IMG/VR virus record: IMGVR_UViG_3300042516_002585
Length of the DNA stretch: 61,869 nucleotides
Direction: 5' to 3' (one strand)
DNA from: an uncultured virus (IMG/VR IMGVR_UViG_3300042516_002585)
Lineage: Duplodnaviria > Heunggongvirae > Uroviricota > Caudoviricetes
The stretch's first letter is position 1; each line of letters starts with the position of its first letter. The position numbers and the translations under genes were made by a program. The notes beneath the pieces are model-generated. The model saw nothing but the letters and a program-made list of their open reading frames with translations. It searched no databases and was not told the origin of the DNA. Below, piece after piece: positions 5,867-37,901 of the stretch.

Positions 5867-5874
5867 ACACAAGG

Positions 5875-5882
5875 TATAAATA
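5875..5882 (+). promoter_or_regulatory. T4-type late promoter
   Basis: TATAAATA just upstream of the gp8 ATG. Confidence 0.75.
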
Positions 5883-5900
5883 CATAAAAAACGTTTAACA

Positions 5901-7460
5901 ATGTCAGCACTTGTTACTGATCAATTTAGGATTTTGAATGCTAGTAATTTTGTAGATTCTGTCGAATCTACAAATAATTCATATTATATTGCAGTTGGGT
6001 TACCAAATCCAACTGCAGTTGGATTTGGAAGATCCACAAATTGGAACACTAATCCACCAGCACCAGTAGATAATTTTTCATATGTGGATCATTATGGTGA
6101 TACTATTTTATATGGTAAAAGAATAACCTCTGCAAATATTAGAAGGATAATTAGAAGAATAGATTGGACGGCAGGAAATAGATATGAAATGTATAGAAAT
6201 GATTATAGTATTCTCAATCCAAGTCCATTAACTAATTCATCTAGACTATATGATGCAAATTACTATGTAATGAATAGTGATTATAGAGTTTATGTTTGTA
6301 TTGAAAATGGGTCAAATGGTACAAATGTAAAAGGTAATGTATCTCAGGACGAACCAACATTTACAGATTTAGAACCATCAAGGGCAGGTGATAGTGGTGA
6401 TGGATATATTTGGAAATATCTTTTTACTGTTTCACCTAGCGATATTGTTAAATTTGATTCTACAGAGTATATAACTGTTCCAAATGGTTGGTTAACATCT
6501 AATGATTCTCAAATATTAGCAGTTAGAGAGTCAGCAGATTCCACAGTAAATAATAACCAGATTAAAACAGTATATATTGAGAAGGCAGGAGCAAATTACT
6601 CAAATGGATTAGGGCAAGAATTTAATATACTTGGTGATGGAAGCGGTGGTAGAGTTAGGGTTGATGTTGAAGGTGGAAAAGTAACTAATACAATTGTTAC
6701 TTCGGGAGGAAAAAATTATAGTTATGGATTGGTTGATTTAGGATCAATTAATTTAAATTCTACTGGAACTAGTGCAAAATTAGTTCCTATTATTCCACCT
6801 TCAAGAGGACATGGTTATGATATCTATACAGAACTTGGAACAGATAAAGTTTTAGTTTATGCTAGATTTGATGATTCTACAAAAGATTTTCCAGTAGATA
6901 CTAGTTTTGCTCAGGTTTGTATTATAAAAAATCCAACAGCATTTGGGTCTTCGACAGTATATACTGACAATACTTTTACTGGTTTATACTCAATGTTATT
7001 TTCATCTATTACCGGCACCCCAACGGTAGGAGAAAAAATTGAGCAGATAGTTTCTAGTGGATCATCCAAAGCGATTGGATATGTAGCTTCTTGGGACAGT
7101 GAAACAAAAGTTTTAAAATATTTTGTGGATCGTTCTTTATATTACAATCAAACAACACTTGATCAACAAGATTATGTTGGCATTTCTACAAATGGTAGAC
7201 TTTATCCGTTCGAATCTTCTGCTAATCAAGTTATTGGAAAATCCTCAGGATTTTCTGCTTCAATATTTACTGGATTTTCTGGAATTTCAACAAATCCAAC
7301 AGGATCAAAATTAATTAATTTGGGTGTTAACTTTACTTCTGGGTTAGCAACTCCTGAAATAAATAAAGGATCGGGAGATATAATCTACCTCGACAATAGA
7401 CCTACAATTAGTAGGAGTGCCCGTCAAAAAGAAGACATCAAAATAGTACTGGAATTTTAA
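5901..7460 (+). CDS. gp8: Baseplate wedge subunit gp8
   Basis: YYVMNSDYRVYVC, DGYIWKYLF and C-terminal IYLDNRPTISR...QKEDIKIVLEF motifs of gp8. Confidence 0.9.
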   Translation: MSALVTDQFRILNASNFVDSVESTNNSYYIAVGLPNPTAVGFGRSTNWNTNPPAPVDNFSYVDHYGDTILYGKRITSANIRRIIRRIDWTAGNRYEMYRNDYSILNPSPLTNSSRLYDANYYVMNSDYRVYVCIENGSNGTNVKGNVSQDEPTFTDLEPSRAGDSGDGYIWKYLFTVSPSDIVKFDSTEYITVPNGWLTSNDSQILAVRESADSTVNNNQIKTVYIEKAGANYSNGLGQEFNILGDGSGGRVRVDVEGGKVTNTIVTSGGKNYSYGLVDLGSINLNSTGTSAKLVPIIPPSRGHGYDIYTELGTDKVLVYARFDDSTKDFPVDTSFAQVCIIKNPTAFGSSTVYTDNTFTGLYSMLFSSITGTPTVGEKIEQIVSSGSSKAIGYVASWDSETKVLKYFVDRSLYYNQTTLDQQDYVGISTNGRLYPFESSANQVIGKSSGFSASIFTGFSGISTNPTGSKLINLGVNFTSGLATPEINKGSGDIIYLDNRPTISRSARQKEDIKIVLEF

Positions 7461-7463
7461 AAA

Positions 7464-10400: not shown

Positions 10401-13400
10401 GGAAGTTCTATCCCATCTCGCCAATTATTAATTATCTTTGATTACTATAAAGTAGCATCGGGAAATAGTGGAGATTTATTTACTGTAAATTCATATACTC
10501 AGGATAGATATTTGAATGATATTCCCATAATTCCTGATCAAATTCGTGCATCTGATGTTCTTGATTTTAGACCAAGAGTTCAAGAATTTGATCCTTCAAC
10601 AACAAATGCATCACCATTTGCATTTAGTTCAAGATCTTATGAAAGCACTTTTAGGTATGCAATTTCTCCTGATGAAACCTCATTTATTGGATATAGTTAT
10701 TATTTGCCAAGAGTTGATTTAGTAACAGTTAATCGTCTTGGCGAAGTTGAAATTGTTCAAGGTGAACCTAGCGACACTCCACGTGCTCCATTTCTTGCAG
10801 ATGATGCAATGGAGTTGGCTCAAATTAGTTATCCAGCATATCTTTATAATCCTCAAAAAGATCCAAAAATCTTATTGAGAGATAATAGAAGATTTACTAT
10901 GAGAGATATTGGAAAACTTGAGCAAAGAATTGAGAATTTAGAAGATATTACAAGTTTGAGTATGCTCGAACTTAAAGCACAAACTCTTGAAGTTACTGAT
11001 GCAAATGGTCTCAATAGATTTAAATCAGGATTTGTTGTTACTAGTTTTAAAGACAAATCTCTTGCTGATATGAGATATACGACCATTGATATCAGTAAAT
11101 CTGATCCAACTGGAATTACTCCTGTTGATTTTTGGTCAATTCCTGCTGAATTAGCATTAGATCCTGGTATTGATCGTTCGACAACTGATATAACACAGAA
11201 CTTAAAATTATTAGATCCAAATATTCAAAAAACTGGTGATTTGTTAACATTAGCATATACTGAAGTTGATTGGATTGAGCAACCACATGCGACTAATGTT
11301 GAAAATGTTAACCCATTTAACGTAATAGTTTTTGTCGGGGGAGTAGTATTAGATCCAGCATCTGATAATTGGGTTAGAACAATTTATATTGATGAGCACA
11401 GAACCGAATCTACTGGAGCAAATTGGGTACAAGAGGCAAATACTTTTGTTAATGAAAATGTAACTGAATTTAATGGACCTCATCCTAATGCTGATGGAAC
11501 CAGGATCATTAAAAGAGGTTCTTTAGTTACAACAACTACTACTACAACTACTCAATATACACCAAAATTAACTGGTCCTTCTAGGGAATTTAATTATGTA
11601 GAAGATGTGAAAATTAGTGGTGATGTAGATCCATTTATGCGTTCGAGAAATGTATATTTTGCAGCAAATGGATTAAGACCATTCACAAAACATTATCATT
11701 ATTTGGATAGTCAACAAGTTGATATTATTCCAAAACTTTGTGAAATTGAAATGCAATCTGGAACTTTCCAAGTATTTGAAAATGCTCGAATTTATAAGCG
11801 TTATGCTGGTGGTAAGCAGATAGGATATATTAGAATCCAAAAACCAAATCATAAGTTTGGAGATACTTCTAGACCAGATATTGGAGCTGGGTTGGGAGCA
11901 CCAGACGTACTCGTTGAAACATATACAGTTGATCCATATGATAAAACAAGGCCAGCTCCTGGTGATTCTTATTCTGCAACATCAAAATTAATTAACTTTG
12001 GTGTTAGAGCTCTCGCAAACGAGGAAAGATATTATGGATATGTAGAAAATGGTTCGATTATTGTTGGAGAAACCAGTGGTGCTATTGCAAAAATTAAAAG
12101 AGCAGAATTAGTAACAGATAATTGGGGTGATGTTATTGGAAACTTCTTCTTTAGAGATCCAAATTCAAATCCACCACCACTATCCAAAGTCAGAAGCGGA
12201 ACAAAAACTGTAAAAGTTACCGCAGTACCACCAGGAGTTACGCCTTTACCAGGATCTACGGTATTTGCTAGTGAAGCACTAGGAACATATAGTGGATCTG
12301 GAACTATCTTAACTCAAGAGACAAGTAGAGTTTCCGTTAGAAATCCACCCCCACCAGTAGCTAAACCAACAGACATTCAAGTTCAAACAAAAGCAGTTCA
12401 TAGAGATCCTCTTGCACAATCATTTACTGTTGATGGTAAAGGAGTATTTTTAACATCATTTGATTTATATTTTGCAGCGAAAGATCCTCAAGCAAAGATT
12501 TATGTAGAACTTAGAACTGTTGAACTAGGAACTCCAACTTCATTCCTTGTTCAAGATTATACACAAGTTGCATTAAATCCTGATCAAATAAACATTGCTG
12601 AGACAACATTTGGCGTTAAGAGTATGGCAGGATTTGATGATGCTGCAAGTGGCGCTACACCAGGTCAATTTGGTTATGAAGTTGACTATCCATATGCAAA
12701 ATCACAAGGTTTCTCTGATGCCGATATCAGATATTTCTTAGAAAATGTATATACTGGTAATATTGGAACAAAAATGAAAGAGATTTTGATGGACACTAGT
12801 TGGGGAGTATATGCCAAACCTACTATTCCAGAACCAGTCCCAACTAGAGTTCGTTTCCCATCTCCTGTATTCTTAGAAGCAGGTAGAGAATATGCAATCG
12901 TAATTCTTTCACCAGCATCTGATGCATATGAAATGTGGACTGCCACAATGGGCAAGAAAACTGTTAAAACACAAAATCTCCCAGATTCTCAGAATGTAAT
13001 TGTTACTAAACAGTATATTGGTGGAAGTTTATTCAAATCTCAAAATGGAACTATTTGGACTGCTAGCCAGTATCAAGATCTTACATTTAAACTTTATAAA
13101 GCTAAATTTGTTCCATCTGGAACCCTAACATTCTATAATACAGATCTTACACCTGGTGGAACAAATGTTCAGACACTTGAAAGCAATCCAGTTGAAGGTT
13201 TACCAAGAAAATTAAAAGTATCAATCTCAGGAACTTTAAACCCTGTTGTTGTTCCAGGTACTAAAATTGGTGAGGGATCCAGTCCAAGTATTACTGGTAT
13301 TGTTGAAAATCTTGGTGGACCAATTTCTGCAACAGGAACTGGTTCTGTTGGTATTGTTGCTGTTGGAGCTGGTTATTCAAATGGAACGTATACATCAGTT

Positions 13401-15086
13401 CCATTATATTCAATTACTGGAAAAGGATCTGGTGCTCAGGCAACAATCACTATCTCTGGTTCTATCGTTTCTGGTGTTAATATTACTTCAGTAGGAAATG
13501 GATATGTAACTGGCGAAATACTAGGAATTACCTCAACAAGCGTTGGTGGTGGTAGTGGTGCCAGAATTGGAGTCAAAACACGCGGAGCTGCTGATTCAAT
13601 TTATCTTACTAATGTTCAAGGTGAAAACTTTACAAACAGTGCGACTCTTGTTTATTATACAAATCCTAATTCAGAATCATCAAGGACTACTGCTACTGCA
13701 ACTGTATCTTCATCATCTCTCATTTCTAACGAATACTCTGGAAATGTTTTTAGAGTTAAGCAGTATAATCATGCACACCATGGGGGCAATAATAAGATTG
13801 AAGTTAATAATGTTTCTCCAGATAGAGAAACAACAACACTTACTGCACCATTTGGTTTAAATGATACTGTCGTATCTGTTGCAAATACAACTATATTCTC
13901 AACATTTGAAGGAATAACAACAAGTCGTGGATATGCGTTGATACAGAATGAGGTTGTATCTTATAGTAATATAACCAGAGTTTCCGGTAACGCAGGAACT
14001 CTTTCAATTGATGGAAGATCTTTAAACAATACAGTTAAAACTCAACACGATGCCGATGAATTTATACAACCCTATGAAGTGAATGGTGTTTCTTTGATGA
14101 GAATTAACAAAACTCACGACATACCTTCATCTTATTATACTTCAGAAAATTCAAATCTAGATAACTACTTCTTAGAGTTTGATAGATCATCCCCAACAAA
14201 TAGATCTAGTGGGGGTTCAATGATTAATTTTGCATCTCAGAAAGGATTTGGTGGAGATACTGTTAGTGTTTCTCAGAACTATCAATTTAGTTCTATTCAA
14301 CCAATGTTCAATATAATTACTCCTGGTAAAGGAACATCAGCATCTGCACAACTTAGAACTATTTCTGGAACGAGTGCTGGTGGATCAGAAGTTTCATTCC
14401 TGGATCAAGGATACGATCCTGTTCCTTTGAATACTGTAGTTCACTATCCAACACCAAGAATGGTTGCATCTAAGATTAATGAGACTACAAGACTAACAAC
14501 ATTACCATCAAATAAATCTTTAACTTTGAAAGTTGACTTCAAAACTGAGGACGAAAATCTATCACCGGTGATGGATATTCAAAATTCTACTTTTATTCTT
14601 GGTAGAAATAGGTCTAATAGTCCAATTTCTAATTATGTGGATGATTCTAGATCTAATCAAATTAATAACGATCCCCATGGATCTGTATTTGTTACTCAGA
14701 TAATTTCTCTTGCTCAACCAGCAACTAGTTTGAGAGTTCTTGTTGCAGCAAATAGACAAGAAAGTGCTGATTTTAGAGTCTTCTATAGATTATTTAAGGC
14801 AGATTCTAGTGATATTCCTCAAAGCTATGTACCATTCCCTGGATATGACAACTTAATTGATACTGATGGTGATGGATTTGGTGATCAAGTTATCAATTTG
14901 AACAATAATAGTGGAAGGGCAGATGCTTTTGTATCACCTAATGATGCAATATCTTATTCAGAGTACCAATTTACTGCAAATAATCTAGAACAATTTGATG
15001 GATTTGCAATTAAAATTGTAATGTCATCAACAAATGAATCAACCCCAGTAAAACTTAAAGATTTTAGATGTATTGCTCTTGCCTAA
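7464..15086 (+). CDS. Very large virion structural protein (VrlC-like)
   Basis: N-terminal NVSPYYDDFD...YRVLFKPG..VQARELT, NYAAPGADRLKI, DPLAQSF and GSLFKSQNG motifs; 2540 aa; position after gp8. Confidence 0.8.
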   Translation: MPQKTNLNVSPYYDDFDKADNYYRVLFKPGYPVQARELTGLQSILQNQVESFGSHIFKEGSMVIPGGVTCDNAFTTIKVNNDHLGIDVTVYLDALKNANTGRGTKVRGQTSGVVGTIKGYLLPPEEGVEQITLFVKYRDGADDGEGIEFLDGEVLILEENITYGNTALNSGDSVLTLVSTNSTATGYAVGVSQGVYFIRGIFLDVPNTQIILDPYNNEPSYRVGFDILEEIVTSDDDVDLNDNAKGFTNYAAPGADRLKISVKLSKKQLTDFNDTNFVELVKIDKGQIKKLQNKSDYSVIKDYFAKRTFEESGNYAVNPFTISVANSLNDEIGNGGLYLEGEKTEQGNIPSDDLLSVKVSAGTAYVKGFDIDLVGGAVVDAPKPRTTKKVDSALVPFATGSLLKVNNVHGVPYLNIGASQSGAQTTQANIIELYNRRRDASGDGPGTAGGGGTKIGEARVYWYGVSDAQYTGDSTTWDLYLFDVQTYTTLYLAKEYTTTEVPLSSFIRGLSSGATGYLAAKPNSSAYSLSQTSGTFLVGEQVIINENPELKIGIQALNAYTTEDIKSVYQDSTALNSSLQADFFADTVLYERTPPNFSITDKLTISSGTTGRVAGRFFSGTTGIKTEAIIKYQFSGQSDPNYNRITAIAADGTNITLASAGVAVTSVARVSVDNGDSVFSLMEPKITNLDSSGLYTILPKENIASVDLSQSELTITKQITGRSTNAFGSLTITASDALDSTSGITSAFFESFDAERYSVHYSDGTTDELNSGKFTLGSNGNSITFTGLRINQSNITVIATLKKRQVTNKSKEFIRSRQLSVIRTSGISTQTGSSATGLSTSKYYGLRVEDNEISLNVPDVVNVRAVYESTDTSTPVLDKLTFATGLALDSNAITGEQLMGQTSRAVAQIVNKAAATIEFVPLNENKFEVGETVIFKESSISAVIQQITPGSYINKTNDYTLDKSHKSQYCDYSRIRRKVGSSIPSRQLLIIFDYYKVASGNSGDLFTVNSYTQDRYLNDIPIIPDQIRASDVLDFRPRVQEFDPSTTNASPFAFSSRSYESTFRYAISPDETSFIGYSYYLPRVDLVTVNRLGEVEIVQGEPSDTPRAPFLADDAMELAQISYPAYLYNPQKDPKILLRDNRRFTMRDIGKLEQRIENLEDITSLSMLELKAQTLEVTDANGLNRFKSGFVVTSFKDKSLADMRYTTIDISKSDPTGITPVDFWSIPAELALDPGIDRSTTDITQNLKLLDPNIQKTGDLLTLAYTEVDWIEQPHATNVENVNPFNVIVFVGGVVLDPASDNWVRTIYIDEHRTESTGANWVQEANTFVNENVTEFNGPHPNADGTRIIKRGSLVTTTTTTTTQYTPKLTGPSREFNYVEDVKISGDVDPFMRSRNVYFAANGLRPFTKHYHYLDSQQVDIIPKLCEIEMQSGTFQVFENARIYKRYAGGKQIGYIRIQKPNHKFGDTSRPDIGAGLGAPDVLVETYTVDPYDKTRPAPGDSYSATSKLINFGVRALANEERYYGYVENGSIIVGETSGAIAKIKRAELVTDNWGDVIGNFFFRDPNSNPPPLSKVRSGTKTVKVTAVPPGVTPLPGSTVFASEALGTYSGSGTILTQETSRVSVRNPPPPVAKPTDIQVQTKAVHRDPLAQSFTVDGKGVFLTSFDLYFAAKDPQAKIYVELRTVELGTPTSFLVQDYTQVALNPDQINIAETTFGVKSMAGFDDAASGATPGQFGYEVDYPYAKSQGFSDADIRYFLENVYTGNIGTKMKEILMDTSWGVYAKPTIPEPVPTRVRFPSPVFLEAGREYAIVILSPASDAYEMWTATMGKKTVKTQNLPDSQNVIVTKQYIGGSLFKSQNGTIWTASQYQDLTFKLYKAKFVPSGTLTFYNTDLTPGGTNVQTLESNPVEGLPRKLKVSISGTLNPVVVPGTKIGEGSSPSITGIVENLGGPISATGTGSVGIVAVGAGYSNGTYTSVPLYSITGKGSGAQATITISGSIVSGVNITSVGNGYVTGEILGITSTSVGGGSGARIGVKTRGAADSIYLTNVQGENFTNSATLVYYTNPNSESSRTTATATVSSSSLISNEYSGNVFRVKQYNHAHHGGNNKIEVNNVSPDRETTTLTAPFGLNDTVVSVANTTIFSTFEGITTSRGYALIQNEVVSYSNITRVSGNAGTLSIDGRSLNNTVKTQHDADEFIQPYEVNGVSLMRINKTHDIPSSYYTSENSNLDNYFLEFDRSSPTNRSSGGSMINFASQKGFGGDTVSVSQNYQFSSIQPMFNIITPGKGTSASAQLRTISGTSAGGSEVSFLDQGYDPVPLNTVVHYPTPRMVASKINETTRLTTLPSNKSLTLKVDFKTEDENLSPVMDIQNSTFILGRNRSNSPISNYVDDSRSNQINNDPHGSVFVTQIISLAQPATSLRVLVAANRQESADFRVFYRLFKADSSDIPQSYVPFPGYDNLIDTDGDGFGDQVINLNNNSGRADAFVSPNDAISYSEYQFTANNLEQFDGFAIKIVMSSTNESTPVKLKDFRCIALA

Positions 15087-21175: not shown

Positions 21176-22933
21176 ATGAGTTGGTCTAACGATTATAAAA
21201 AATCAATAGACTGTGGAAATCCAAAAGGATTTTCGCAAAAGGCACATTGTGCTGCTCGTAGGAAAAGAAAAAGAGGTGAAGAAACCAAGTCTAAATCACC
21301 ATTTAGCGAACAAAAAGAAATGAGCGAAACCCGTTACTGTAAGTTGTGTAGGAAAATAGAGCAAAGGGATGGATGCTCCTATGGACCTTTAATGTGGGAT
21401 AGATATTCTACGCCGATTCTTACCATGAATCAGATTAAATATGATCGAAACCGACCTCATCCTGCCAATGAGTCAAAAGATCATGAATATTCAATGGCTC
21501 GCTCAGAGTTATCAACCATTGCGAAGGCGACTAAAAAACTTCAGAAAAAAATGAAGAAAGGTGAGGGTGAGATTGAAGCATGGGTTCAATCAAAGATTAC
21601 AAAAGCAGCAGACTATATTGATACGGCAGCAGATTATGTAGATAGTGGTGAAATGAATAAAGAAGAAGTTGAAATATTAGAAGGTAAGAGAGACGGGAAA
21701 TCAGCAAAAGATAAAGATTATTCTCTTCGTGATTGGTTTAAAGGTGGTGGATGGGTTCAAGCAGGTGGTAAGTATGATGGAAAACCTTGTGCTAAACAAC
21801 CTGGACAAAAAACAAAACCATTCTGCCGCGATGCTGACGATAGAGCATCAATGAGTAAGGAAGAAAGAAATAAAAGAGCAGCAAAAAAACGTAAAGAAGA
21901 CCCAAATCCAAATAGAAAAGGAAAGGCAAAGTTTGTAACTGTTGAACAAGTTGATGCCAGTAAGTATGGAAAAACCCCAGATCAGATCTTACAGGATATT
22001 ATAGATAAAGATAAAAAAGGACCAAACAAATACGGTGGTGGACAAGTAATTAAAACTGGTTTACAAAAAGCACATTTTGAACCAGAAGGTGAACAACTAG
22101 ATGAACTGTGGGGTAAAGTTGCTATCGGTGCAGGTGCTGCCTTTATTCCATATCTTTTAAAAAAGTTCGCAAAACCAGCAGTTGATAAAGCAATTGATTC
22201 TCCTGCAACTGGTTCTGATGATTTGATTGATAAAATGAAGCAAAAAAGAGATGCTATTAATAAAGCAACTCAAAAAAATTCTTATGAACCAGAAGGTGAT
22301 ATGGTAGAAGAAAAAGACGCTTGTTATAAGAAGGTAAAGGCAAGGTATGATGTTTGGCCAAGTGCATATGCTTCTGGCGCACTAGTCAAGTGCCGCAAAG
22401 TTGGTGCAAAAAATTGGGGAAATAAAACTAAAAAAGAAGGATATGAATTTTCTAATTGGAGAGATGAATTCTTCCCAACAGAAGTTGAATCTGTAAATAT
22501 TATTGAACCACAACCATTACAACCATCAAAGGGTATTGGAAGTGAAATTTTAGATGAGGCAGGTAAAAAGTGCTGGAAAGGTTACAAAAAATCAGGAACA
22601 CAAGAACTGTTTGGTAAAACTTACAACCGTTGTGTAAAGGAAGGATATTCTGATTGGAGAACAGAGATTTCCGAAGATTGGCAATCAGTAAATCGTAAAG
22701 ATAAAACTGATGGTCTAAGTCAAGCAGCAGTTGATGCTTATCGTCGTGAGAATCCAGGTTCAAAACTTCAAACTGCGGTAACTGAAAAGAAACCAAAAGG
22801 AAAGAGAGCAAAGCGTCGTGCTAATTTCTGCCGACGTATGAAAGGGATGAAATCAAAACTCACATCATCAAAAACAGCAAGAGATCCAGATTCAAGAATT
22901 AACAAAGCATTACGCCGTTGGAGGTGCAGATAA
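21176..22933 (+). CDS. Basic, Cys-containing multi-module protein (putative internal head polyprotein)
   Basis: 585 aa; short K/R/C-rich modules separated by acidic linkers, including two (H/S)(F/Y)EPEG..(L/V)xE repeats. Confidence 0.7.
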   Translation: MSWSNDYKKSIDCGNPKGFSQKAHCAARRKRKRGEETKSKSPFSEQKEMSETRYCKLCRKIEQRDGCSYGPLMWDRYSTPILTMNQIKYDRNRPHPANESKDHEYSMARSELSTIAKATKKLQKKMKKGEGEIEAWVQSKITKAADYIDTAADYVDSGEMNKEEVEILEGKRDGKSAKDKDYSLRDWFKGGGWVQAGGKYDGKPCAKQPGQKTKPFCRDADDRASMSKEERNKRAAKKRKEDPNPNRKGKAKFVTVEQVDASKYGKTPDQILQDIIDKDKKGPNKYGGGQVIKTGLQKAHFEPEGEQLDELWGKVAIGAGAAFIPYLLKKFAKPAVDKAIDSPATGSDDLIDKMKQKRDAINKATQKNSYEPEGDMVEEKDACYKKVKARYDVWPSAYASGALVKCRKVGAKNWGNKTKKEGYEFSNWRDEFFPTEVESVNIIEPQPLQPSKGIGSEILDEAGKKCWKGYKKSGTQELFGKTYNRCVKEGYSDWRTEISEDWQSVNRKDKTDGLSQAAVDAYRRENPGSKLQTAVTEKKPKGKRAKRRANFCRRMKGMKSKLTSSKTARDPDSRINKALRRWRCR

Positions 22934-23241
22934 TGAAAAGTTTTCAGCAGTTTATTTCAGAAAGTATCACCATCAATGGTGATTTTAATGGAACTCTCAA
23001 TGTAGGTTCCCCTCAACCCGAACAAGCAAGCGAGTCTTTCTTTGCTGATGTAGTTTGGGAAGGAAAGATGTATCGTTTAGAAGTAGAAGGCAAAATTCTT
23101 TCTAAGAATGAACTAGCAGAGCAAATTCAAGGAGAATATCCTGGTGCAATTGTTCATAACGTTTATCCAAGTCAGGTAAATACTTCAAGAATTAAAAACG
23201 CACAAAGGTATCAACCAGAAAGATTGTCTTGGAGTGAGTGA
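22933..23241 (+). CDS. Hypothetical protein with CTS-like N-terminus (MKSFQQFISES)
   Basis: ATG at 22933 coupled to the previous stop (TAATG). Confidence 0.7.
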   Translation: MKSFQQFISESITINGDFNGTLNVGSPQPEQASESFFADVVWEGKMYRLEVEGKILSKNELAEQIQGEYPGAIVHNVYPSQVNTSRIKNAQRYQPERLSWSE

Positions 23242-24626: not shown

Positions 24627-26303
24627 ATGAGTGAAGTTTATCTTGGTAATCCCAATCTAAAAAAAGCAAATACTCAAATTGAATTTACAGAAGAACAAAT
24701 TATTGAGTTCCTCAAATGTAAAGAAGATCCTGTTTATTTTGCAAGGAATTATATTAAGATTGTGTCTCTTGATCACGGTCTAGTTCCTTTTGAGATGTAT
24801 CCTTTTCAGGAAAGATTGATTGAAAACTTTCATAAGAATAGATTTAACATCTGTAAGATGCCCCGACAGACGGGTAAGTCTACTACTTGTGTATCATATC
24901 TTTTACATTATGCAGTTTTTAACGATAATGTTAATATTGCAATTCTAGCAAACAAAGCATCAACTGCTAGGGATCTTCTTGGAAGATTACAACTTGCTTA
25001 CGAAAACTTGCCTAAATGGATGCAACAAGGTATTATATCTTGGAATAAGGGTAGTTTAGAATTAGAAAATGGCTCCAAGATTTCATCTAACTCTACTTCT
25101 TCATCTGCTGTCCGAGGCGGATCCTATAATGTCATCTTTCTTGACGAGTTCGCTTTCATCCCGAATCACATTGCTGATGACTTCTTTGCCTCTGTTTATC
25201 CTACTATTTCTTCTGGACAGAGCACGAAAGTAATTATCGTATCTACTCCACGCGGTATGAATCACTTCTACCGAATGTGGCATGATGCTGAAAGATCAAA
25301 AAATGAATACGTGCCAACTGATGTTCATTGGTCAGAAGTTCCTGGTAGGGATGAGTTATGGAAACAGCAAACTATTGCCAACACTTCTGAGCAGCAGTTT
25401 AAGGTTGAGTTTGAGTGTGAATTCTTAGGATCTGTCAATACTCTCATTAATCCATCCAAACTAAGAAATTTAGTTTATGAGGATCCAATTAAAAGAAATG
25501 CTGGACTAGACATTTATCAAAATCCAATAGAAGAAAATAATTATCTGATAACTGTGGACGTTGCCAGAGGTCTAGGTAATGATTACTCTGCTTTTATTGT
25601 TTTTGATATTACACAGTTTCCATACAAAGTTGTAGCAAAGTATAGAAATAATGAAATTAAACCGATGTTATTTCCAAGTATTATTCACGAAGTAGCAAAG
25701 GCATATAATAATTCTTGGTTGTTAATTGAGGTTAATGATATTGGTGATCAGGTTGCTAATATTTTACATTTTGATTTAGAATATGATAACGTTCTTATGT
25801 GTGCAATGAGAGGACGTGCTGGGCAAATTGTTGGATCTGGATTTAGTGGAAAGAAATCTCAACTTGGGGTAAGAATGACTTCTGCCGTTAAGAAGTTGGG
25901 TTGCTCTAATTTAAAGACTTTGTTGGAAGATGATAAGTTACTGACTGTTGATTATGACATTATATCAGAACTTACAACATTTGCACAGAGGCACAATTCT
26001 TTTGAAGCGGAAGAGGGATGTAATGATGACCTTGCAATGTGTTTAGTTATTTTTTCTTGGTTAGTTGCTCAGGATTACTTCAAGGAAATGACGGACAATG
26101 ATGTTCGTAAGAGAATTTATGAGGAACAGAAAAATCAGATAGAACAGGATATGGCACCTTTTGGATTTATTCTAGATGGTTTGGATGATGATACATTTAT
26201 AGATGAGGTAACTGGTGATAGATGGATGCTTGCGAAAAAATCAGAAGATAATTGGAATTTGGATGAGTATGGTGATAGATCTTATATGTGGGAATATAGA
26301 TAA
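24627..26303 (+). CDS. gp17: Terminase large subunit gp17
   Basis: YLGNPNLKK, Walker A PRQTGKST, IFLDEFAF, VSTPRG, DDLAM; no intein. Confidence 0.97.
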   Translation: MSEVYLGNPNLKKANTQIEFTEEQIIEFLKCKEDPVYFARNYIKIVSLDHGLVPFEMYPFQERLIENFHKNRFNICKMPRQTGKSTTCVSYLLHYAVFNDNVNIAILANKASTARDLLGRLQLAYENLPKWMQQGIISWNKGSLELENGSKISSNSTSSSAVRGGSYNVIFLDEFAFIPNHIADDFFASVYPTISSGQSTKVIIVSTPRGMNHFYRMWHDAERSKNEYVPTDVHWSEVPGRDELWKQQTIANTSEQQFKVEFECEFLGSVNTLINPSKLRNLVYEDPIKRNAGLDIYQNPIEENNYLITVDVARGLGNDYSAFIVFDITQFPYKVVAKYRNNEIKPMLFPSIIHEVAKAYNNSWLLIEVNDIGDQVANILHFDLEYDNVLMCAMRGRAGQIVGSGFSGKKSQLGVRMTSAVKKLGCSNLKTLLEDDKLLTVDYDIISELTTFAQRHNSFEAEEGCNDDLAMCLVIFSWLVAQDYFKEMTDNDVRKRIYEEQKNQIEQDMAPFGFILDGLDDDTFIDEVTGDRWMLAKKSEDNWNLDEYGDRSYMWEYR

Positions 26304-31616: not shown

Positions 31617-32267
31617 ATGAAACTCATCACAGAAGAAATTTCAAAAGTAGAATTTATTACCGAAGGTAAAGGATCTGCAAAAAAATCCTATATCAAAGGT
31701 ATTTTCTTGCAGGCAGAACAAGTCAACAGAAATGGCAGAATGTATCCTCTTTCTATTATGGAAAGAGAGGTAAATCGCTATAATGAAGCATTTGTTCAAA
31801 AAGGTCGTGCTCTTGGAGAACTCGGTCACCCTGATGGACCTACCGTAAATCTTGATAGAGTTTCACATAAAATTTGTGAACTTTATAAAGATGGTAATAA
31901 TTTTATTGGTAAGGCACAACTTTTAGAAACTCCAATGGGTAAGATTGCAAAATCTCTCATTAGTGAGGGAGTTTGCCTTGGCGTTTCTTCTCGTGGTGTT
32001 GGTTCATTAAAGATGACCAATGAGGGTCATAAAGTTGTTGGTGAAGATTTTATGTTAGCAACTGCTGCTGATATCGTTGCCGACCCTTCTGCTCCTGACG
32101 CTTTTGTTCAGGGAATTATGGAAGGTAAAGAGTGGGTTTGGGAAGGTGGAATTCTTCGTGAAAGACTTGCCGAGCAAACTCAAAAGAGAATTAATACTCT
32201 CGTAGATCAAAAAAGACTTGAAGAGCATAAGTTGAATTTATTCAACGATTTCCTCTCAAATCTTTAA
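31617..32267 (+). CDS. gp21: Prohead protease gp21
   Basis: NRNGRMYP, ALGELGHP, GVSSRGVGS, DIVADPSAPDA. Confidence 0.97.
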   Translation: MKLITEEISKVEFITEGKGSAKKSYIKGIFLQAEQVNRNGRMYPLSIMEREVNRYNEAFVQKGRALGELGHPDGPTVNLDRVSHKICELYKDGNNFIGKAQLLETPMGKIAKSLISEGVCLGVSSRGVGSLKMTNEGHKVVGEDFMLATAADIVADPSAPDAFVQGIMEGKEWVWEGGILRERLAEQTQKRINTLVDQKRLEEHKLNLFNDFLSNL

Positions 32268-32307: not shown

Positions 32308-33390
32308 ATGTCCGTTGGTAGCAATTTACAAGAAATGGAAAACGTAGTAACCAAAGGGGCTGCACCTGCTGAGCCAATGCCTTCGGCTGGTATTCCAGTT
32401 GAAGATCTCGGCGGTCCTACTCCTGATAATTATCGTCCAGACGACGATTCAGCAGCACTCAAAACTCCTGGCGCAACTCTTGCTCAGGTCAAAGATGTTG
32501 TTAACGCAAAAGCGGTAAGAGCAGAAGAGACCGAAGTAGAGGAAGAAGTCATCGAAGAGGAGACTGAAGAGGAAGAGGATCTTGAAGGTGGCGAAGAAGG
32601 TGGTGAAGAGGAAGTTGAAGAGGAAGAAGAAGAAGTCGTAGAAGAAGATTTCAACATCGAAGAAGATGTTAATGCTCTTCTAGCGGGTGAAGAACTCTCT
32701 GAAGAATTCCAAGAGAAAGCACGTACAATCTTTGAGGCAGCAATTAAATCAAGAGTTGCTGAAATCAAAGAATCCCTTCAAGAATCGTATGCTGCTGCTC
32801 TTGTAGAAGAGCTTGATGCAATTAAGACTCAACTCACCGAAAGAGTTGATTCTTATCTTGAGTATGTTGCTGATGAGTGGTTCCAAGAGAATGCACTCGC
32901 AGTAGAGCACGGTCTTAAGACCGAAATGACTGAATCATTCCTTGTAGGAATGAAGAGTCTTTTTGAAGATCATTATGTAACAATCCCTGAAGATAGATAT
33001 GATGTAATCGAGAGCATGGTAGATAAACTTGATGAAATGGAAGAAAAACTCAACGAGCAAATCGAAAGAAACGTTGCTCTGAATAGAAGATTAGCTGAGT
33101 CGGTTGCTGATGTAATCTTTGCAGATGTCGCTGAGGGTCTCGCACTTTCTCAGAAGGACAAACTCGCTTCTCTTGCTGAAAATGTTGAGTTTGAAAGTGA
33201 AGCAGACTATCGTGAGAAGCTAGTAACTCTGAGGGAATCATATTTCCCATCAAACGCTGGTACTCAAAGAAGCGCAAGTGAGAATCTTTCGGAAGAAGTA
33301 ACCACAGATGAGAAAGAGGCTCTTAATGAGTCCATTTCTCCAATGATGGCTGCTTACTTACAGACTCTTTCAAGAGCTTCTAAAAAGTGA
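32308..33390 (+). CDS. gp22: Prohead scaffold/core protein gp22
   Basis: Highly acidic; LSEEFQEKARTIFEAA, VDSYLEYVADEW; between g21 and g23. Confidence 0.93.
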   Translation: MSVGSNLQEMENVVTKGAAPAEPMPSAGIPVEDLGGPTPDNYRPDDDSAALKTPGATLAQVKDVVNAKAVRAEETEVEEEVIEEETEEEEDLEGGEEGGEEEVEEEEEEVVEEDFNIEEDVNALLAGEELSEEFQEKARTIFEAAIKSRVAEIKESLQESYAAALVEELDAIKTQLTERVDSYLEYVADEWFQENALAVEHGLKTEMTESFLVGMKSLFEDHYVTIPEDRYDVIESMVDKLDEMEEKLNEQIERNVALNRRLAESVADVIFADVAEGLALSQKDKLASLAENVEFESEADYREKLVTLRESYFPSNAGTQRSASENLSEEVTTDEKEALNESISPMMAAYLQTLSRASKK

Positions 33391-33442: not shown

Positions 33443-34840
33443 ATGCAAATGTTCAATGCCGAGCATCTGCAGGAGAAGTGGGCACCAATCCTCGACTATG
33501 ATGGTCTTGATCCAATCAAAGATTCACATCGTAGAGCGGTAACCGCAATCCTGCTTGAAAACCAAGAAAGAGAACTTCGTGAAGAGAGAGCATTCCTCTC
33601 CGAAGCTCCAACCGTAAACACCAACAGTGGCGCTAATGCAGGTTTCTCTGCTGGTGCTTCTGCCCCTGTTGCTGGTTTCGACCCTGTTCTGATCTCCCTG
33701 ATTAGACGTTCAATGCCTAACCTGGTCGCTTATGACCTCGCTGGCGTTCAACCAATGAACGGTCCTACTGGACTGATCTTCGCAATGCGCTCTAAGTACA
33801 CCAACATGAGCGGCACCGAAGCACTGTTCAACGAAGCAGATACTGCATTCTCTGGACAGGACAGCGGATTCAACCTCACCAACGGATTTACCGCAGGTAA
33901 CGTTGGTATGGGTACAACCACTCAGCGTGGAACCAATCCTGGTCTTCTGGATGCTACCTATCCTGCAACCGGTGACGCAACTACCTACAACGTAGGTCAG
34001 GGTATGCGTACCGATGATGCAGAGAATCTTGGTCAGACCAGTGGCGACCACTTTAACGAGATGGCATTCTCGATCGAGAAAGTCACCGTTACTGCTAAGT
34101 CACGTGCTCTGAAAGCTGAGTACTCGCTCGAACTCGCACAAGACCTGAAGGCAATTCACGGTCTGAATGCAGAAGCTGAGCTTGCTAACATCCTCAGCAC
34201 TGAGATCCTCGCTGAAATCAACCGCGAAGTTATCCGTACCATCTATAACGTTGCTGAGTCTGGTGCTCAGGCAAACGTTGCTACCGCTGGTACTTTCGAC
34301 CTCGACGTTGACTCCAACGGTCGTTGGTCAGTTGAGAAGTTCAAGGGTCTGATCTTCCAGATCGAGCGTGACGCAAACGCTATCGCCCAGAGAACTCGTC
34401 GTGGCAAGGGTAACATGATCCTCTGCTCTGCTGACGTTGCTTCGGCACTCACCATGGCAGGTGTTCTTGATTACACCCCTGCACTCAACGCTAACCTCAA
34501 CGTTGATGACACTGGTAACACCTTCGCTGGTGTTCTGCAAGGTAAGTATCGTGTTTATATCGATCCTTATGCTGCAAACGTATCTGCTAACCAGTACTAC
34601 GTTGTTGGTTATAAAGGTTCTTCTCCTTATGATGCTGGTCTGTTCTACTGCCCATATGTACCTCTCCAGATGGTACGTGCAGTTGGTCAGGACACCTTCC
34701 AGCCTAAGATCGGCTTCAAGACTCGTTATGGAATTGTTGCTAACCCATTCTCGCAGGGTACTAGCGCAATCAGCGGTGCTGGTCTTGATCGTAACGCAAA
34801 CCGTTACTACAGAAGAGTCAAGGTTACCAATTTAATGTGA
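33443..34840 (+). CDS. gp23: Major capsid protein gp23
   Basis: LQEKWAPIL, GVQPMNGPTGLIFAMR, AKSRALKAEYS.ELAQDLKAIHG, FQPKIGFKTRYG; strong codon bias. Confidence 0.99.
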   Translation: MQMFNAEHLQEKWAPILDYDGLDPIKDSHRRAVTAILLENQERELREERAFLSEAPTVNTNSGANAGFSAGASAPVAGFDPVLISLIRRSMPNLVAYDLAGVQPMNGPTGLIFAMRSKYTNMSGTEALFNEADTAFSGQDSGFNLTNGFTAGNVGMGTTTQRGTNPGLLDATYPATGDATTYNVGQGMRTDDAENLGQTSGDHFNEMAFSIEKVTVTAKSRALKAEYSLELAQDLKAIHGLNAEAELANILSTEILAEINREVIRTIYNVAESGAQANVATAGTFDLDVDSNGRWSVEKFKGLIFQIERDANAIAQRTRRGKGNMILCSADVASALTMAGVLDYTPALNANLNVDDTGNTFAGVLQGKYRVYIDPYAANVSANQYYVVGYKGSSPYDAGLFYCPYVPLQMVRAVGQDTFQPKIGFKTRYGIVANPFSQGTSAISGAGLDRNANRYYRRVKVTNLM

Positions 34841-34860: not shown

Positions 34861-34888
34861 AGACCTCCCGAAAGGGGGGTCTTTTTTT
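34861..34888 (+). terminator. Rho-independent terminator after g23
   Basis: AGACCTCCC-GAAA-GGGGGGTCT followed by a T-run. Confidence 0.9.
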
Positions 34889-34918
34889 ATCTAAATAAAA
34901 ATAAAACTAGTAGTAACA

Positions 34919-35077
34919 ATGAAACCAACTCCAAGACAATCACAAGAAATTCATAAGAACTACGAAAGAGTTGTTGAGCACCTAATCAGTGAAGGTTATG
35001 CAGAAGACAAAGAGTCTGCTGATAGCATTATCTCAGGTATGAGTGAAGCGTGGTTCAATCTAATCATTGCCGACTGA
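34919..35077 (+). CDS. 52-aa stand-alone 'EGYA..MSE.W' module protein; not in ORF track
   Basis: MKPTPRQSQEIHKNYERVVEHLISEGYAEDKESADSIISGMSEAWFNLIIAD; preceded by CTAAATA (34891-34897); similar to modules in 43601, 45613 and 46332. Confidence 0.75.
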   Translation: MKPTPRQSQEIHKNYERVVEHLISEGYAEDKESADSIISGMSEAWFNLIIAD

Positions 35078-35080
35078 TAA

Positions 35081-35521
35081 GTGAAAACTTTTAAACAGTT
35101 TCAAGAACAAGCACAACCAAGTTCAATATTTAAGTGGACCAAAAGACCAGAGTCAACGGACAAAAATGTTGAAACTAGTTCTTATGGTCCAGGACTTTAC
35201 GGAAACAAGACAGCAGATGGAACTGTTTTAACTCCAAAAACAAGAGGAGTTGCTCACAAAACTTTACCACTTGGAACTCAGGTAAGAATTACAGATCCGA
35301 GAACTGGAAGATCAGTGACTGCACCTGTTATTGATAGGGGTCCATATCACGGTAATAGAGAGTATGATTTGACAACAGGAACCACTCAACAACTCGGTTA
35401 TCCAAATTATAAAGAATTTGGTGCAAGAACCCTTAAAGTCGGACCATTACCAAAACCAAAACTAAGTCCTATTTTTAAATATCCAGAAAAACCAAAATCA
35501 ATCTTTAACTGGAAAAAATAA
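35081..35521 (+). CDS. RlpA-like double-psi beta-barrel lytic transglycosylase with CTS-like N-terminus
   Basis: SSYGPGLYGNKTADG...AHKTLPLGT.VRIT....GRSV...VIDRGPY...R.YDLT matches the RlpA/DPBB pattern; GTG start, MKTFKQFQE. Confidence 0.85.
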   Translation: MKTFKQFQEQAQPSSIFKWTKRPESTDKNVETSSYGPGLYGNKTADGTVLTPKTRGVAHKTLPLGTQVRITDPRTGRSVTAPVIDRGPYHGNREYDLTTGTTQQLGYPNYKEFGARTLKVGPLPKPKLSPIFKYPEKPKSIFNWKK

Positions 35522-36060
35522 TGTCTAATTGTAATTTTCCTGGACAAATTTCAAATAGAAATTTTCTAACAACTGTTGGGTTTAAATTTACTTTGGCAAA
35601 ATATCCCCAAGTAGATTTCTTTGCCAATAGTGCCAGAATACCAGAGATTTCTCTTGCAACTACAATACAACCTTCATACTTAAAGGATATTGACGTACCA
35701 GGTGAAAAATTAACCTATGGAGATTTAACTCTTAGGTTTATTGTTGATGAGAATATGGAAAATTATATTGCAGTGTATGAATGGTTAACTGGACTTGGAT
35801 TTCCAGAAACAACTCAACAATTTAAAAATTTGACCACAGATGATGCTGGTCAGAGAGATATGTTGGAAGCATTCAGTGATGGAACTTTACGTATTCTGAA
35901 CAGTAATTATAGAGAAGTTGCAAAAGTTAAGTTTTTAGATTTATTCCCAACATCATTAAGTTCTCTTGATTTTGATGCCACACCAACTGACATCCAGTAC
36001 TTTACAGCACAGGCATCTTTCAAGTATACTGTATACACTATAACTAGTTCGATTAAATGA
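35521..36060 (+). CDS. gp3: Tail completion/sheath stabiliser gp3
   Basis: NRNFL...GFKF, PGEKLTYGDLTLRFIVDENMENY, F.DLFP.SLS.L.F. Confidence 0.92.
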   Translation: MSNCNFPGQISNRNFLTTVGFKFTLAKYPQVDFFANSARIPEISLATTIQPSYLKDIDVPGEKLTYGDLTLRFIVDENMENYIAVYEWLTGLGFPETTQQFKNLTTDDAGQRDMLEAFSDGTLRILNSNYREVAKVKFLDLFPTSLSSLDFDATPTDIQYFTAQASFKYTVYTITSSIK

Positions 36061-36506: not shown

Positions 36507-37193
36507 ATGAAAACTTTTAGAGAGTTTATATCAGAGGCGGGGGCAACTTCTACAAGATTGGGTATAAGAACACAAGAAATTATTAACCGTTCTCGAAATA
36601 CTCCAACAAGTTTGTCTGCACCATATACTTCTTCAAATCCAAGTCCACAAGAACTTGCAGATCGTCGAAGAGATTTTGGTAATTTAAAACCTGGACAAAC
36701 TAGTTTAGATACATTACATAATTTATTCAATTACGCAAAACAAAGAGCACAAGGAATTTATCCAGAAACAAAACATTCGCAAAGAACAAGAGAGAATCCA
36801 ATTAGAAGTAGACCAACTCCACCAAATGCAGTGAAGACTAGTAGTGGTTCACTCACAAGAACTTATCAACCAGTTAGAAGCACTCAAAATCCTTTAACTC
36901 CTTCTGTTAGAGATGAAAGAAGAGCAGCAGCAGGATCATCTGGTCAAGGTTCAACACCAAAAGGTCCAAAACTTTATAGACAATCTGTAAGTGGCGTTTC
37001 TGTTGGCGATGATCCGTTTGCAGTTATAAAATCTGCTAGTACACAACCAAAACCACTCCCCAAACCCAGAGGAACAAGAGGTGGTTCTTCATCATTACCA
37101 AATTTAGGACGTCCTGGAATTGGATTTAAAATGGATGTTGGACATAAACCAGGTGACAGATATGGAATAAGTGGTATTGGTCTTGCAGACTGA
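36507..37193 (+). CDS. Basic low-complexity protein with CTS-like N-terminus (putative internal head protein)
   Basis: MKTFREFISEA then R/P/S/T-rich sequence; CTAAATA late promoter at about 36485; own terminator. Confidence 0.7.
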   Translation: MKTFREFISEAGATSTRLGIRTQEIINRSRNTPTSLSAPYTSSNPSPQELADRRRDFGNLKPGQTSLDTLHNLFNYAKQRAQGIYPETKHSQRTRENPIRSRPTPPNAVKTSSGSLTRTYQPVRSTQNPLTPSVRDERRAAAGSSGQGSTPKGPKLYRQSVSGVSVGDDPFAVIKSASTQPKPLPKPRGTRGGSSSLPNLGRPGIGFKMDVGHKPGDRYGISGIGLAD

Positions 37194-37215
37194 GAGGCAG
37201 AAATGCCTCTTTTTT
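37194..37215 (+). terminator. Rho-independent terminator
   Basis: GAGGCA-GAAA-TGCCTC followed by a T-run. Confidence 0.85.
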
Positions 37216-37217
37216 AT

Positions 37218-37225
37218 TATAAATA
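37218..37225 (+). promoter_or_regulatory. T4-type late promoter
   Basis: TATAAATA upstream of the GIY-YIG gene and uvsW. Confidence 0.75.
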
Positions 37226-37247: not shown

Positions 37248-37901
37248 ATGGCATTTATATACAAAATAACTAATAATATAAATCAAAAATTTTACATAGG
37301 GTTTACAGGTCAAAAAATCCCTATGCGTAGATTTAATCAACACCTATCATCTGCTCGTTCTGAAAGAAAAAATAATCAACCTATTATCAGAGCAATAAGA
37401 AAATATGGGGAAGAAAATTTTTCTTTTGAAATCCTTTTGGAAGGAGAAGAAAAATTTTTACTCAATGTAGAAGAACCTAGATTGATAAAAGAACTAAAAC
37501 CAGAATATAATTCTACATTAGGTGGTGAGGGAATACTTGGATATAAGCATACAGAAGAGACGAAAATAAAATGTGGACTATCAACACTAGGTAGAAAAGA
37601 AAGTGAAGAGCATAAAAGATGGAGAAGTCAAAAAATTAAAGAAGGTTGGAAAAATCAGAATGTAAATAAAAAAATAGAAGTATCTAATAGCAAATTAAAT
37701 TCCAATAGTCAAAGAATTGAAATTGAAATTGAAGGAATAAAATTTAAAAGTATTAATGATGCTGCTCGTTGGGCGATGGATAAATATGGTATAGGAAGGA
37801 ACACCGCAATAAGATATATTAAAGAAGGTCGTTCATTTTCCAACAAAAAACAAATGAATAGAATTTATGATGGAAAATACAGGTCAACGAAGCACCTCTA
37901 A
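37248..37901 (+). mobile_element. Free-standing GIY-YIG homing endonuclease gene (Seg-like)
   Basis: FIYKITN....KFYIGFT...RRFNQH, AIRKYGEENF.FEIL, YNSTLGGEG, NUMOD3-like KHTEETK.K, C-terminal FKSINDAAR; AT-rich. Confidence 0.9.

Follow-up and report, generated by a model that had tools for sequence, protein, structure and literature searches.

Introduction

In contractile-tailed phages, the enzymes that cut the cell wall are generally assigned to the tip of the tail, and the known head cargo of T4-type phages consists of anti-restriction and host-modifying proteins that act in the cytoplasm. The peptidoglycan of cyanobacteria, for its part, is unusually thick and highly cross-linked. Here, we describe a gene that appears to address a wall-cutting type of enzyme to the phage head. 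It lies on a 61,869-nucleotide stretch of DNA from an uncultured member of the Caudoviricetes (IMG/VR record IMGVR_UViG_3300042516_002585; the whole stretch is referred to as the window), which is part of a T4-like cyanomyovirus (Kyanoviridae-like). A first-pass annotation had flagged the gene as encoding an RlpA-type lytic transglycosylase with a capsid-targeting leader in place of a lipoprotein signal. We refer to the product as the CTS-DPBB protein, after its putative capsid-targeting sequence (CTS) and its double-psi beta-barrel (DPBB) domain.

In phage T4, head loading requires no more than the first ten residues of the internal protein IPIII. Within the CTS, targeting involves residues 4 and 7 and processing residues 8 and 10, and the gp21 protease cleaves after a Glu in a short motif that has a hydrophobic residue two positions earlier. 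When the leader is attached to foreign proteins, these too are packaged and reach the infected cell (PMC9026906). As for the enzyme family, RlpA of Pseudomonas aeruginosa has a catalytic Asp, D168, and RlpA of Escherichia coli is inactive, that Asp being a Ser (PMC9712689). Related domains have been described from cyanophages. A domain in the hub of phage A-1(L) (residues 266–430, an ‘endoglucanase’ according to its authors) lysed EDTA-treated Anabaena cells (PMC10966104), and cyanophage rlpA has been regarded as host-like and of unknown function (PMC4916379).

Results

An RlpA-type double-psi beta-barrel with a predicted catalytic aspartate

All elements of the RlpA/DPBB pattern listed in the first-pass annotation (SSYGPGLYGNKTADG, AHKTLPLGT, VIDRGPY and YDLT) are present in the CTS-DPBB protein, and the Pfam search that it had proposed as a check bears the assignment out: DPBB_1 (PF03330) matches residues 39–109 with an E-value of 6.8e-10 and 39.5 bits, above the curated cut-off of 28.8, and is the sole Pfam family in the protein at E <= 0.01. 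In a sequence search of the PDB (phmmer), the protein matches PA4485 of P. aeruginosa (4AVR; E 7.8e-10, residues 31–106) and, from cyanophage A-1(L), the hub protein (8KEA; E 6.3e-5, residues 297–383). Among the PHROGs, the match is to positions 285–382 of phrog_7930 (‘lipoprotein precursor’), a profile that represents hub-type proteins and spans 896 positions.

With 41 relatives as input, AlphaFold2 gave a model with a mean predicted local distance difference test (pLDDT) value of 79 and a core at residues 28–122 of ~90 (about 87–94 in blocks 31–120). Residues 4–10 form a short helix, and the segments ~11–27 and 123–146 are disordered, the C-terminal 24 residues being a low-confidence tail. 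The best Foldseek match of the model is 4avr_A, i.e. PA4485 (E 1.5e-9; root-mean-square deviation 1.8 Å over 96 columns; 32% identity; template-modelling score 0.87 on the target), followed by the A-1(L) hub, 8KEA (E 7.3e-9), and, lower in the list, by loosenin, kiwellins, expansins, papain inhibitor, cerato-platanins and MltA. As far as the predicted model shows, the protein has the DPBB fold that had been proposed for it.

In a BLASTP alignment with RlpA of E. coli K-12, the EYDLT of the window’s protein aligns with VISLS, and DRGPY is common to both. Because D96 (EYDLT) aligns with the Ser of the inactive E. coli protein, we place the catalytic position there, in agreement with the earlier choice of the Asp in YDL. 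D85 (VIDRGP) is not the discriminating residue, since it is also kept in inactive E. coli RlpA. Both residues are invariant in a 41-sequence alignment. Judged by this alignment, the protein has the catalytic Asp of a competent RlpA-type lytic transglycosylase, an enzyme type that would yield 1,6-anhydro-MurNAc products from peptidoglycan.

RlpA targets septa and denuded glycan through its SPOR domain. Two hallmarks of RlpA proper, the lipoprotein signal with its lipobox Cys and the C-terminal SPOR domain, are absent from the window’s protein, and the targeting to division sites or denuded glycan that had also been suggested therefore has no basis and was rejected.

A leader of the T4 capsid-targeting type

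As the first-pass annotation had noted, the CTS-DPBB protein has no signal peptide and no lipobox; it contains no Cys at all. The highest 15-residue mean of Kyte-Doolittle hydropathy is 0.24 for the whole protein and -0.71 for its N-terminal part, and the isoelectric point (pI) is 10.07. Instead, its N-terminus resembles those of the T4 internal proteins (NC_000866), again as first perceived. MKTFKQF is identical to the corresponding part of IPI (MKTFKEFTST) in six of seven residues and shares M1, K2, T3 and F7 with IPII and IPIII (both MKTYQEFIAE), with an aromatic residue at position 4. Thus, the targeting residues (Y/F4 and F7 in T4) are present as F4 and F7, and the window encodes both a gp21-type protease and a gp22-type scaffold.

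The leader is conserved among relatives. A large protein collection contained 707 matches to the CTS-DPBB protein at E <= 0.001, of which the best 120 were classified. The leader is at residue 1 in 95 of these and just inside an over-long gene call in four (three found by script, P0054 by eye); 16 begin at the Met of leader position 8, two are 5´ fragments and three are different, longer proteins. All or part of the leader is found in 114 of the best 120. Across the 95 relatives, which are close to one another in sequence, position 7 is invariably F, position 2 is K in 94, position 4 is F in 94, and position 3 is T (81) or S (14). The positions corresponding to T4 processing are mostly a hydrophobic residue at 8 (I 47, M 23, V 11, L 4; Q 10) and E at 10 (E 86, Q 9), followed by A at position 11 in 77 sequences. 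The motif [ILMV]-x-E lies within the leader in 85 of the 95, and the bodies of the same proteins (residue 12 to the end) have none, compared with 26.3 expected from residue shuffles. The direction of this depletion is the one expected of a protein that has to withstand a proteolytic prohead.

In IMG/VR, 100 stretches encode a relative, and 80 loci on viral contigs were kept, 79 of them with the leader (the exception is L082). The leader occurs as 42 distinct DNA sequences, in which conserved residues are encoded by AAA (23) or AAG (19) and TTT (33) or TTC (8), and Ser by TCA as well as AGT. Since the conserved residues use synonymous codons freely, the constraint is on the peptide and not on the RNA; a role of the leader as a translation signal at the nucleotide level was rejected on the same ground.

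The leader is carried by unrelated proteins

Counted over the window and 92 related loci, complete DPBB proteins occur in 54 distinct versions, and a further 19 distinct open reading frames (ORFs) of other kinds bear the leader. Many of the 19 sit in the gap between UvsY and UvsW, and because relatives hold at least ten unrelated leader-bearing ORFs there, this gap can be seen as a variable cargo slot. In the window it is occupied by an ORF of 228 residues with the N-terminus MKTFREFISEAG, which has no Pfam, PHROG or Protein Atlas family (Atlas scores of 0.81 or less). A third leader-bearing gene, of 102 residues, lies between g16 and g17. Its product is acidic. By tblastn it is present in 135 records of cultured cyanophages, where it is annotated as hypothetical throughout, and it is a candidate for a widely conserved head cargo. 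A fourth ORF starting with MKTF (24820–24948, 42 residues) was excluded, as it lies inside gp17 in another frame and is without F7. A degenerate DNA pattern of the leader gave 12 matches on the coding strand of five long contigs, and the reversed control none.

One of the leader-bearing cargo proteins (435–444 residues) is the core cyanophage ‘cytidylyltransferase/NMNAT’, found in L099 (214–1521, minus strand), in L100 (1501–2835, plus strand) and in phage S-SCSM1 (NC_070962.1, 88819–90048). Its leader rides on an N-terminal extension of ~110 residues. In S-SCSM1, the homologue starts with MKSFLQFLKEAA, and its annotation is that of a virion protein. NMNAT/cytidylyltransferase proteins have been reported from the virion proteomes of S-CBWM1, S-SZBM1, S-SCSM1 and S-CREM2, with the authors’ caution that contamination was not excluded (PMC10665884). 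This is the sole experimental link between the leader and the virion, and it concerns another cargo than the DPBB protein. Altogether, the computational evidence supports the view that the leader is a conserved, portable CTS of the T4 type rather than a secretion signal.

Clade-specific motifs and variable tails

Ten of the 95 relatives, including the window’s protein, form a clade with F-Q-E-[Q/E] at positions 7–10 (E9 in all ten) and ~20 extra residues before the domain. The proteins of this clade have the motif [SPT][IL]F[KN][WFY] once before the domain and once or twice after it. The first-pass annotation had pointed to SSIFKWTK (14–21), PIFKYPE (130–136) and KSIFNWKK (139–146) as similar motifs bracketing the domain, and the likeness is real: the protein has three copies of the pattern, a number reached or exceeded in 0 of 100,000 shuffles of its residues, and the window’s remaining 57 ORFs have none (19,888 residues in total).

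Outside the window’s clade, the tails are different and basic. Among the 54 distinct DPBB proteins, 22 end in ...PDLGVKVxMxIPKIVPTKKK, 16 in ...GLMYGKY, five in ...IFNWKK, three in ...IVGLPD and eight otherwise. Some of these tails resemble the C-termini of unrelated leader-bearing ORFs. An example is the likeness between the window’s 228-residue protein (...YGISGIGLAD) and a protein of L020 (...YGIGGIGLAD), and the C-terminal type of the former recurs on unrelated cargo in L020, L037 and L060. The tails could possibly serve in wall binding, in DNA binding or as a second address label.

Conserved position and distribution of the family

The DPBB gene has g23 before it and gp3 after it in 66 of the 80 loci. 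In further loci only the g23 flank (three) or only the gp3 flank (five) is seen because the contig ends there, and in six the gene is elsewhere: five times between hsp20 and the phrog_36119 gene in the replication module and once near baseplate genes, beside another leader-bearing ORF. All six displaced copies keep the leader, so that leader and DPBB appear from the sequences to move as a unit. In one viral contig, L023 (288–1136), a deletion has brought the DPBB C-terminus into frame with gp3 from about its residue 37 onwards. The resulting fusion ORF of 282 residues probably represents an artefact of assembly or a defective variant.

The leader sets the family apart from other DPBB proteins. 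After clustering at 50%, 20,294 representatives match at E <= 0.001. Classified by N-terminus, the best 150 of these comprise three with the leader (the three top matches), 101 with a hydrophobic N-terminus and 46 with neither (fragments and long multidomain proteins). Four of the phage records matched by tblastn were looked at more closely. The small DPBB proteins of cultured cyanophages, S-PM2 p158, B23 gp360 and S-CRM01 gp109, have hydrophobic signal-type N-termini and are encoded among non-structural genes, and gp134 of S-CBWM1 is a 572-residue protein behind the tape-measure gene. In this company, the window’s family looks like an RlpA-type domain in which the export signal was replaced by a head-loading leader.

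Gene neighbourhood

The window runs, all on the plus strand, from gp13 to gp23 and on through gp3, UvsY, UvsW, gp55, gp47, gp46, gp45, gp44, gp62, RegA and the DNA polymerase region (Table 1). At the DNA level, the cultured phage nearest to it is Synechococcus phage S-SRM01, with 79% identity across 56% of a 5-kb query. The CTS-DPBB gene had been placed between g23 and g3; it does follow g23 and directly precedes the gp3-like gene, with the 52-residue ORF intervening on the g23 side. Its GTG start comes right after the TGA TAA closing that ORF, for which no Pfam or PHROG match was found and which has a homologue in 27 of the 80 related loci. At the same place, S-SRM01 has g23, a 56-residue ORF and gp3, without the DPBB gene; it is also without the 228-residue ORF and without the homing endonuclease between UvsY and UvsW. 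The gp3-like gene has a weak Pfam gp19 match, below cut-off, and its S-SRM01 homologue is annotated as tail completion/sheath stabiliser.

Table 1. Features of the CTS-DPBB gene and its surroundings (positions in the window)
Feature	Position	Strand	Evidence
Third CTS-type gene, 102 residues, MKSFQQFISE|S, phrog_1742, pI 4.98, between g16 and g17	22933..23241	+	
gp21-type prohead protease, expected processor of CTS cargo	31617..32267	+	phrog_207 E 1.5e-81
gp22-type scaffolding core protein	32308..33390	+	Pfam T4_CASP E 2.3e-81; phrog_237
gp23 major capsid protein	33443..34840	+	Pfam Gp23 E 9.1e-153
Terminator-like hairpin (34861–34882) and T run after g23	34861..34889	+	
TCTAAATA, one mismatch to the T4 late-promoter box TATAAATA, 22 nucleotides 5´ of the 52-residue ORF	34890..34897	+	
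Acidic ORF of 52 residues (pI 4.77) between g23 and the DPBB gene	34919..35077	+	
CTS-DPBB gene, 146-residue basic protein, RlpA-type DPBB behind a capsid-targeting-type leader	35081..35521	+	ORF, Pfam, AlphaFold2/Foldseek, pI
Leader, residues 1–10, MKTFKQFQEQ, CTS-like, F4/F7 kept, processing positions changed (Q8, E9, Q10)	35081..35110	+	
Short motif, copy 1, SSIFKWTK, residues 14–21, in the clade-specific N-terminal extension	35120..35143	+	
DPBB core, residues 28–122	35162..35446	+	pLDDT, Foldseek, phmmer
Codon of D85 (VIDRGP), invariant Asp	35333..35335	+	
Codon of D96 (EYDLT), predicted catalytic Asp	35366..35368	+	
Short motif, copy 2, SPIFKYPE, residues 129–136	35465..35488	+	
Short motif, copy 3, KSIFNWKK, residues 139–146, C-terminus	35495..35518	+	
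gp3-like tail protein (tail-tube family), start overlaps DPBB stop	35521..36060	+	phrog_45 E 1.4e-40
Second CTS-type cargo gene of the block, 228 residues, MKTFREFISE|AG, pI 10.94	36507..37193	+	
Terminator-like hairpin closing the block orf52-DPBB-gp3-uvsY-cts228	37192..37211	+	

The genes for the gp21 protease and the gp22 scaffold lie 3 kb upstream of the CTS-DPBB gene. By analogy with T4, the gp22-type protein would be the docking partner of the leader; a complex prediction of gp22 (27-row alignment) with DPBB residues 1–40 scored 0.00, which is evidence neither way. The gp23 protein reads ...RAFLSEAPTV where its propeptide would end, and this L-S-E-A site, which resembles the I-S-E-A of the leaders, is where gp23 would be cleaved. 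The hairpins after g23 and after the 228-residue ORF, together with TCTAAATA, frame the block orf52-DPBB-gp3-uvsY-cts228, which may for this reason be one late unit. Going by its one-mismatch box, TCTAAATA would be the late promoter of the block; in the window as a whole, the exact box TATAAATA is not enriched (7 found, 5.9 expected), and a scan for sigma-70-type promoters was uninformative (11 found, 8.9 expected). Metatranscriptome contigs from two runs in two studies are identical to 35128–35441, 35018–35111 (X2) and 35234–35444 (X1), and so take in most of the CTS-DPBB ORF. This is no more than consistent with its transcription, since DNA carry-over is possible in such libraries.

A GIY-YIG homing-endonuclease-like ORF (37248–37901, plus strand; Pfam GIY-YIG E 8.9e-8) lies before UvsW, the start of which (37867) is overlapped by the end of this ORF. 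Upstream of it are the hairpin at 37192–37211 and then an exact TATAAATA at 37218–37225. Related endonuclease ORFs are found at several sites in relatives, including between g23 and the DPBB gene (L034, L064). At the other end of the window (2–15086, plus strand), two giant ORFs flank a gp8-like baseplate gene. One has at least 1,954 residues and runs off the window start, the other has 2,540 residues and DUF4815; their counterparts in S-SRM01 are the giants that carry the annotations ‘baseplate wedge initiator’ and ‘VriC-like’. On related contig G002 (L088, 749–1944), a T4-lysozyme-family gene is present as two overlapping ORFs of 234 and 173 residues that together cover the 405-position profile phrog_3617; the pair may reflect a frameshift, a programmed shift or two genes.

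Discussion

Comparison with known systems

The CTS-DPBB protein combines features of CTS cargo and of virion-associated muralytic enzymes, both of which are known kinds of protein. With T4 IPI, IPII and IPIII (and Alt) it shares the N-terminal leader, the small size and basic character, and the presence of gp21 and gp22 homologues. In both cases the leader is portable across unrelated cargo and the cargo genes are found in variable slots. The differences are that the window’s cargo has a peptidoglycan-cleaving fold and is not an anti-restriction protein or ADP-ribosyltransferase, that the host is a cyanobacterium, that positions 8–10 are changed in the window’s clade, and that loading and ejection are here predicted by analogy. 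Searches of a literature collection retrieved no paper linking cyanophages with a capsid-targeting sequence, the sole match being a T4 review that cites a cyanophage paper.

On the enzyme side, the hub gp15 of the Anabaena myophage A-1(L) (PDB 8KEA) is a virion component of a cyanophage, and its domain of the same DPBB type has shown lytic activity on host cells. However, this domain belongs to a baseplate hub of 899 residues located at the tail tip, of which it is one module, whereas the window’s protein is free, 146 residues long, equipped with a head-targeting leader and encoded near the capsid gene. As for the baseplate gp5 lysozyme route, with which the first-pass annotation had contrasted the protein, no gp5 was found in the window, and none is annotated in a 49-kb stretch of S-SRM01; Pfam Gp5_OB was not found in five long related contigs, where the controls were silent too, making this search uninformative. 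P. aeruginosa RlpA and PA4485 (4AVR) share the fold, the sequence family and the catalytic Asp, and differ from the window’s protein in that the latter is without a lipoprotein signal, an expansin-type linker region and a SPOR domain. The host-like rlpA products (S-PM2 p158, S-CRM01 gp109, B23 gp360 and those of A-1 and N-1) are also small DPBB proteins, 38–42% identical over the domain. They have signal-type N-termini (S-PM2 ...TAKAASGC) and a non-structural context, whereas the window’s family has the CTS leader and belongs to the head/tail module. As a working analogy we use T7 gp16, an internal core protein with a lytic transglycosylase domain that is stored in the head and ejected at infection. 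It differs in being a large core protein of a podovirus with an SLT-type (lysozyme-like, GH23) domain, and it is not known to have a CTS leader; the window’s protein, with 146 residues and DPBB_1 as its only domain, is not of the gp16 type itself.

Weighing the alternatives

We interpret the CTS-DPBB protein as a lytic transglycosylase that would be loaded by its CTS, stored in the head and released at infection, a reading that we place just on the likely side of even. The head-packaged enzyme envisaged in the first-pass annotation thus finds partial support: comparative evidence speaks strongly for its head-loading part, the fold and the catalytic residue speak for its enzymatic part, and nothing speaks for its septal target. 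Several observations weigh against our interpretation. The leader of the window’s protein has Q8-E9-Q10 and not the canonical I/M8-x-E10, and no conserved [ILMV]-x-E was found downstream; processing in this clade is therefore uncertain, and a shifted cleavage site at F-Q-E is possible. The 95 relatives are closely related (~50% identity or more), such that the leader counts and the motif depletion are not independent observations and the effective sample is smaller than 95. A tblastn search of 50,697 phage records matched 46, all at less than 60% identity and none covering 80% of the query, with close records possibly outside the search; the family is absent from the cultured phages searched and common in metagenomes. 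In addition, E. coli RlpA exemplifies the fold without catalysis, kiwellin, papain inhibitor, expansins and loosenin show that binders and inhibitors also occur among DPBB proteins, and T4 internal proteins enter the cytoplasm together with the DNA and thus arrive in a compartment free of peptidoglycan. These last points would suit a protein that is packaged by its leader but delivered to the cytoplasm, or that is non-catalytic, e.g. a glycan binder, an expansin- or loosenin-like loosener, or an agent that binds or inhibits a host protein. Binding could then be the role of the clade-specific aromatic-basic motifs and of the variable basic tails, and many of the structural neighbours are indeed non-enzymatic. 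Set against this are the invariance of the catalytic Asp and of the DRGP Asp in 41 relatives and the identity of the nearest structures, namely RlpA-type PA4485 and the lytic A-1(L) hub domain. Moreover, no cytoplasmic substrate is known for the DPBB fold. We regard this alternative as unlikely, albeit worth serious consideration, as entry of T4 CTS cargo into the host cell with the DNA is on record (PMC9026906).

The remaining alternatives depart from the head-stored enzyme in other ways. If the protein were a late, unpackaged cytoplasmic muralytic enzyme that reaches the wall at lysis through the holin lesion, as an accessory endolysin, its N-terminus would serve some other purpose. Lack of a signal peptide is also a feature of holin-dependent endolysins such as T4 e, and the gene is in a block with late-type signals. 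However, many unrelated proteins bear the leader, among them one whose homologue has a virion annotation. In addition, the protease motif is restricted to the leader, and the position in the head/tail module is conserved in the 66 loci with both flanks. Furthermore, the DPBB protein is not needed as a lysis enzyme, since two related contigs encode a separate endolysin-type ORF of the T4-lysozyme family. Taken together, these observations make a role at lysis quite improbable. It is also conceivable that the protein is a core component at assembly only, loaded and then expelled or degraded at maturation without ever reaching a new host; core proteins use the same targeting route, and most T4 core material is cleaved and leaves the head (PMC9026906). 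Here, the complete lack of [ILMV]-x-E sites in the 95 bodies is the opposite of what a protein bound for degradation should show, and an intact enzyme active site is conserved, and we give this last scenario very little credence.

A possible route to the cell wall

For a head-stored lytic transglycosylase, the following course of events can be proposed. Late in infection, the ten-residue amphipathic leader would dock the protein to the gp22 core and thereby enclose it in the prohead, as happens with Alt and the internal proteins of T4. Removal of the leader by the gp21-type protease, at [I/M/V/L]-x-E|A, would follow in most relatives. The window’s clade has F-Q-E|Q instead of this site, and here the leader may be retained, inefficiently removed or cleaved one position earlier. 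The domain, free of protease sites, would survive in the DNA-filled head and exit through the tail at infection. Close to the tail tip, it could then cut the glycan strands in the thick peptidoglycan of the cyanobacterium and so ease the entry of DNA. The exit through the tail and the cleavage near its tip make up the weakest step of this proposal, as peptidoglycan is periplasmic and T4 cargo is described as entering the cell along with the DNA.

Taken further, the observations raise the tentative and rather doubtful possibility that a large group of uncultured T4-like cyanophages store a transglycosylase in the capsid and fire it through the contractile tail ahead of the DNA, by a route like that of T7 gp16. 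The clade-specific tails (IFKW repeats, ...GLMYGKY, ...IVGLPD and ...IPKIVPTKKK) would then act as a second, exchangeable kind of address label, keeping the enzyme in the head or on the wall.

In conclusion, the DPBB family offers a natural and clean way to test the rule by which MK[TS]F..F followed by [ILMV]-x-E|A marks virion cargo in cyanophages, with a cargo that is of an easily assayed enzyme type and has a single predicted catalytic residue. As the family is common in public metagenomes, the gene is likely to matter ecologically. A wall-cutting enzyme addressed to the head would raise the questions of how head proteins leave through the tail and into which compartment, and of how cyanophages cross the peptidoglycan of their hosts.

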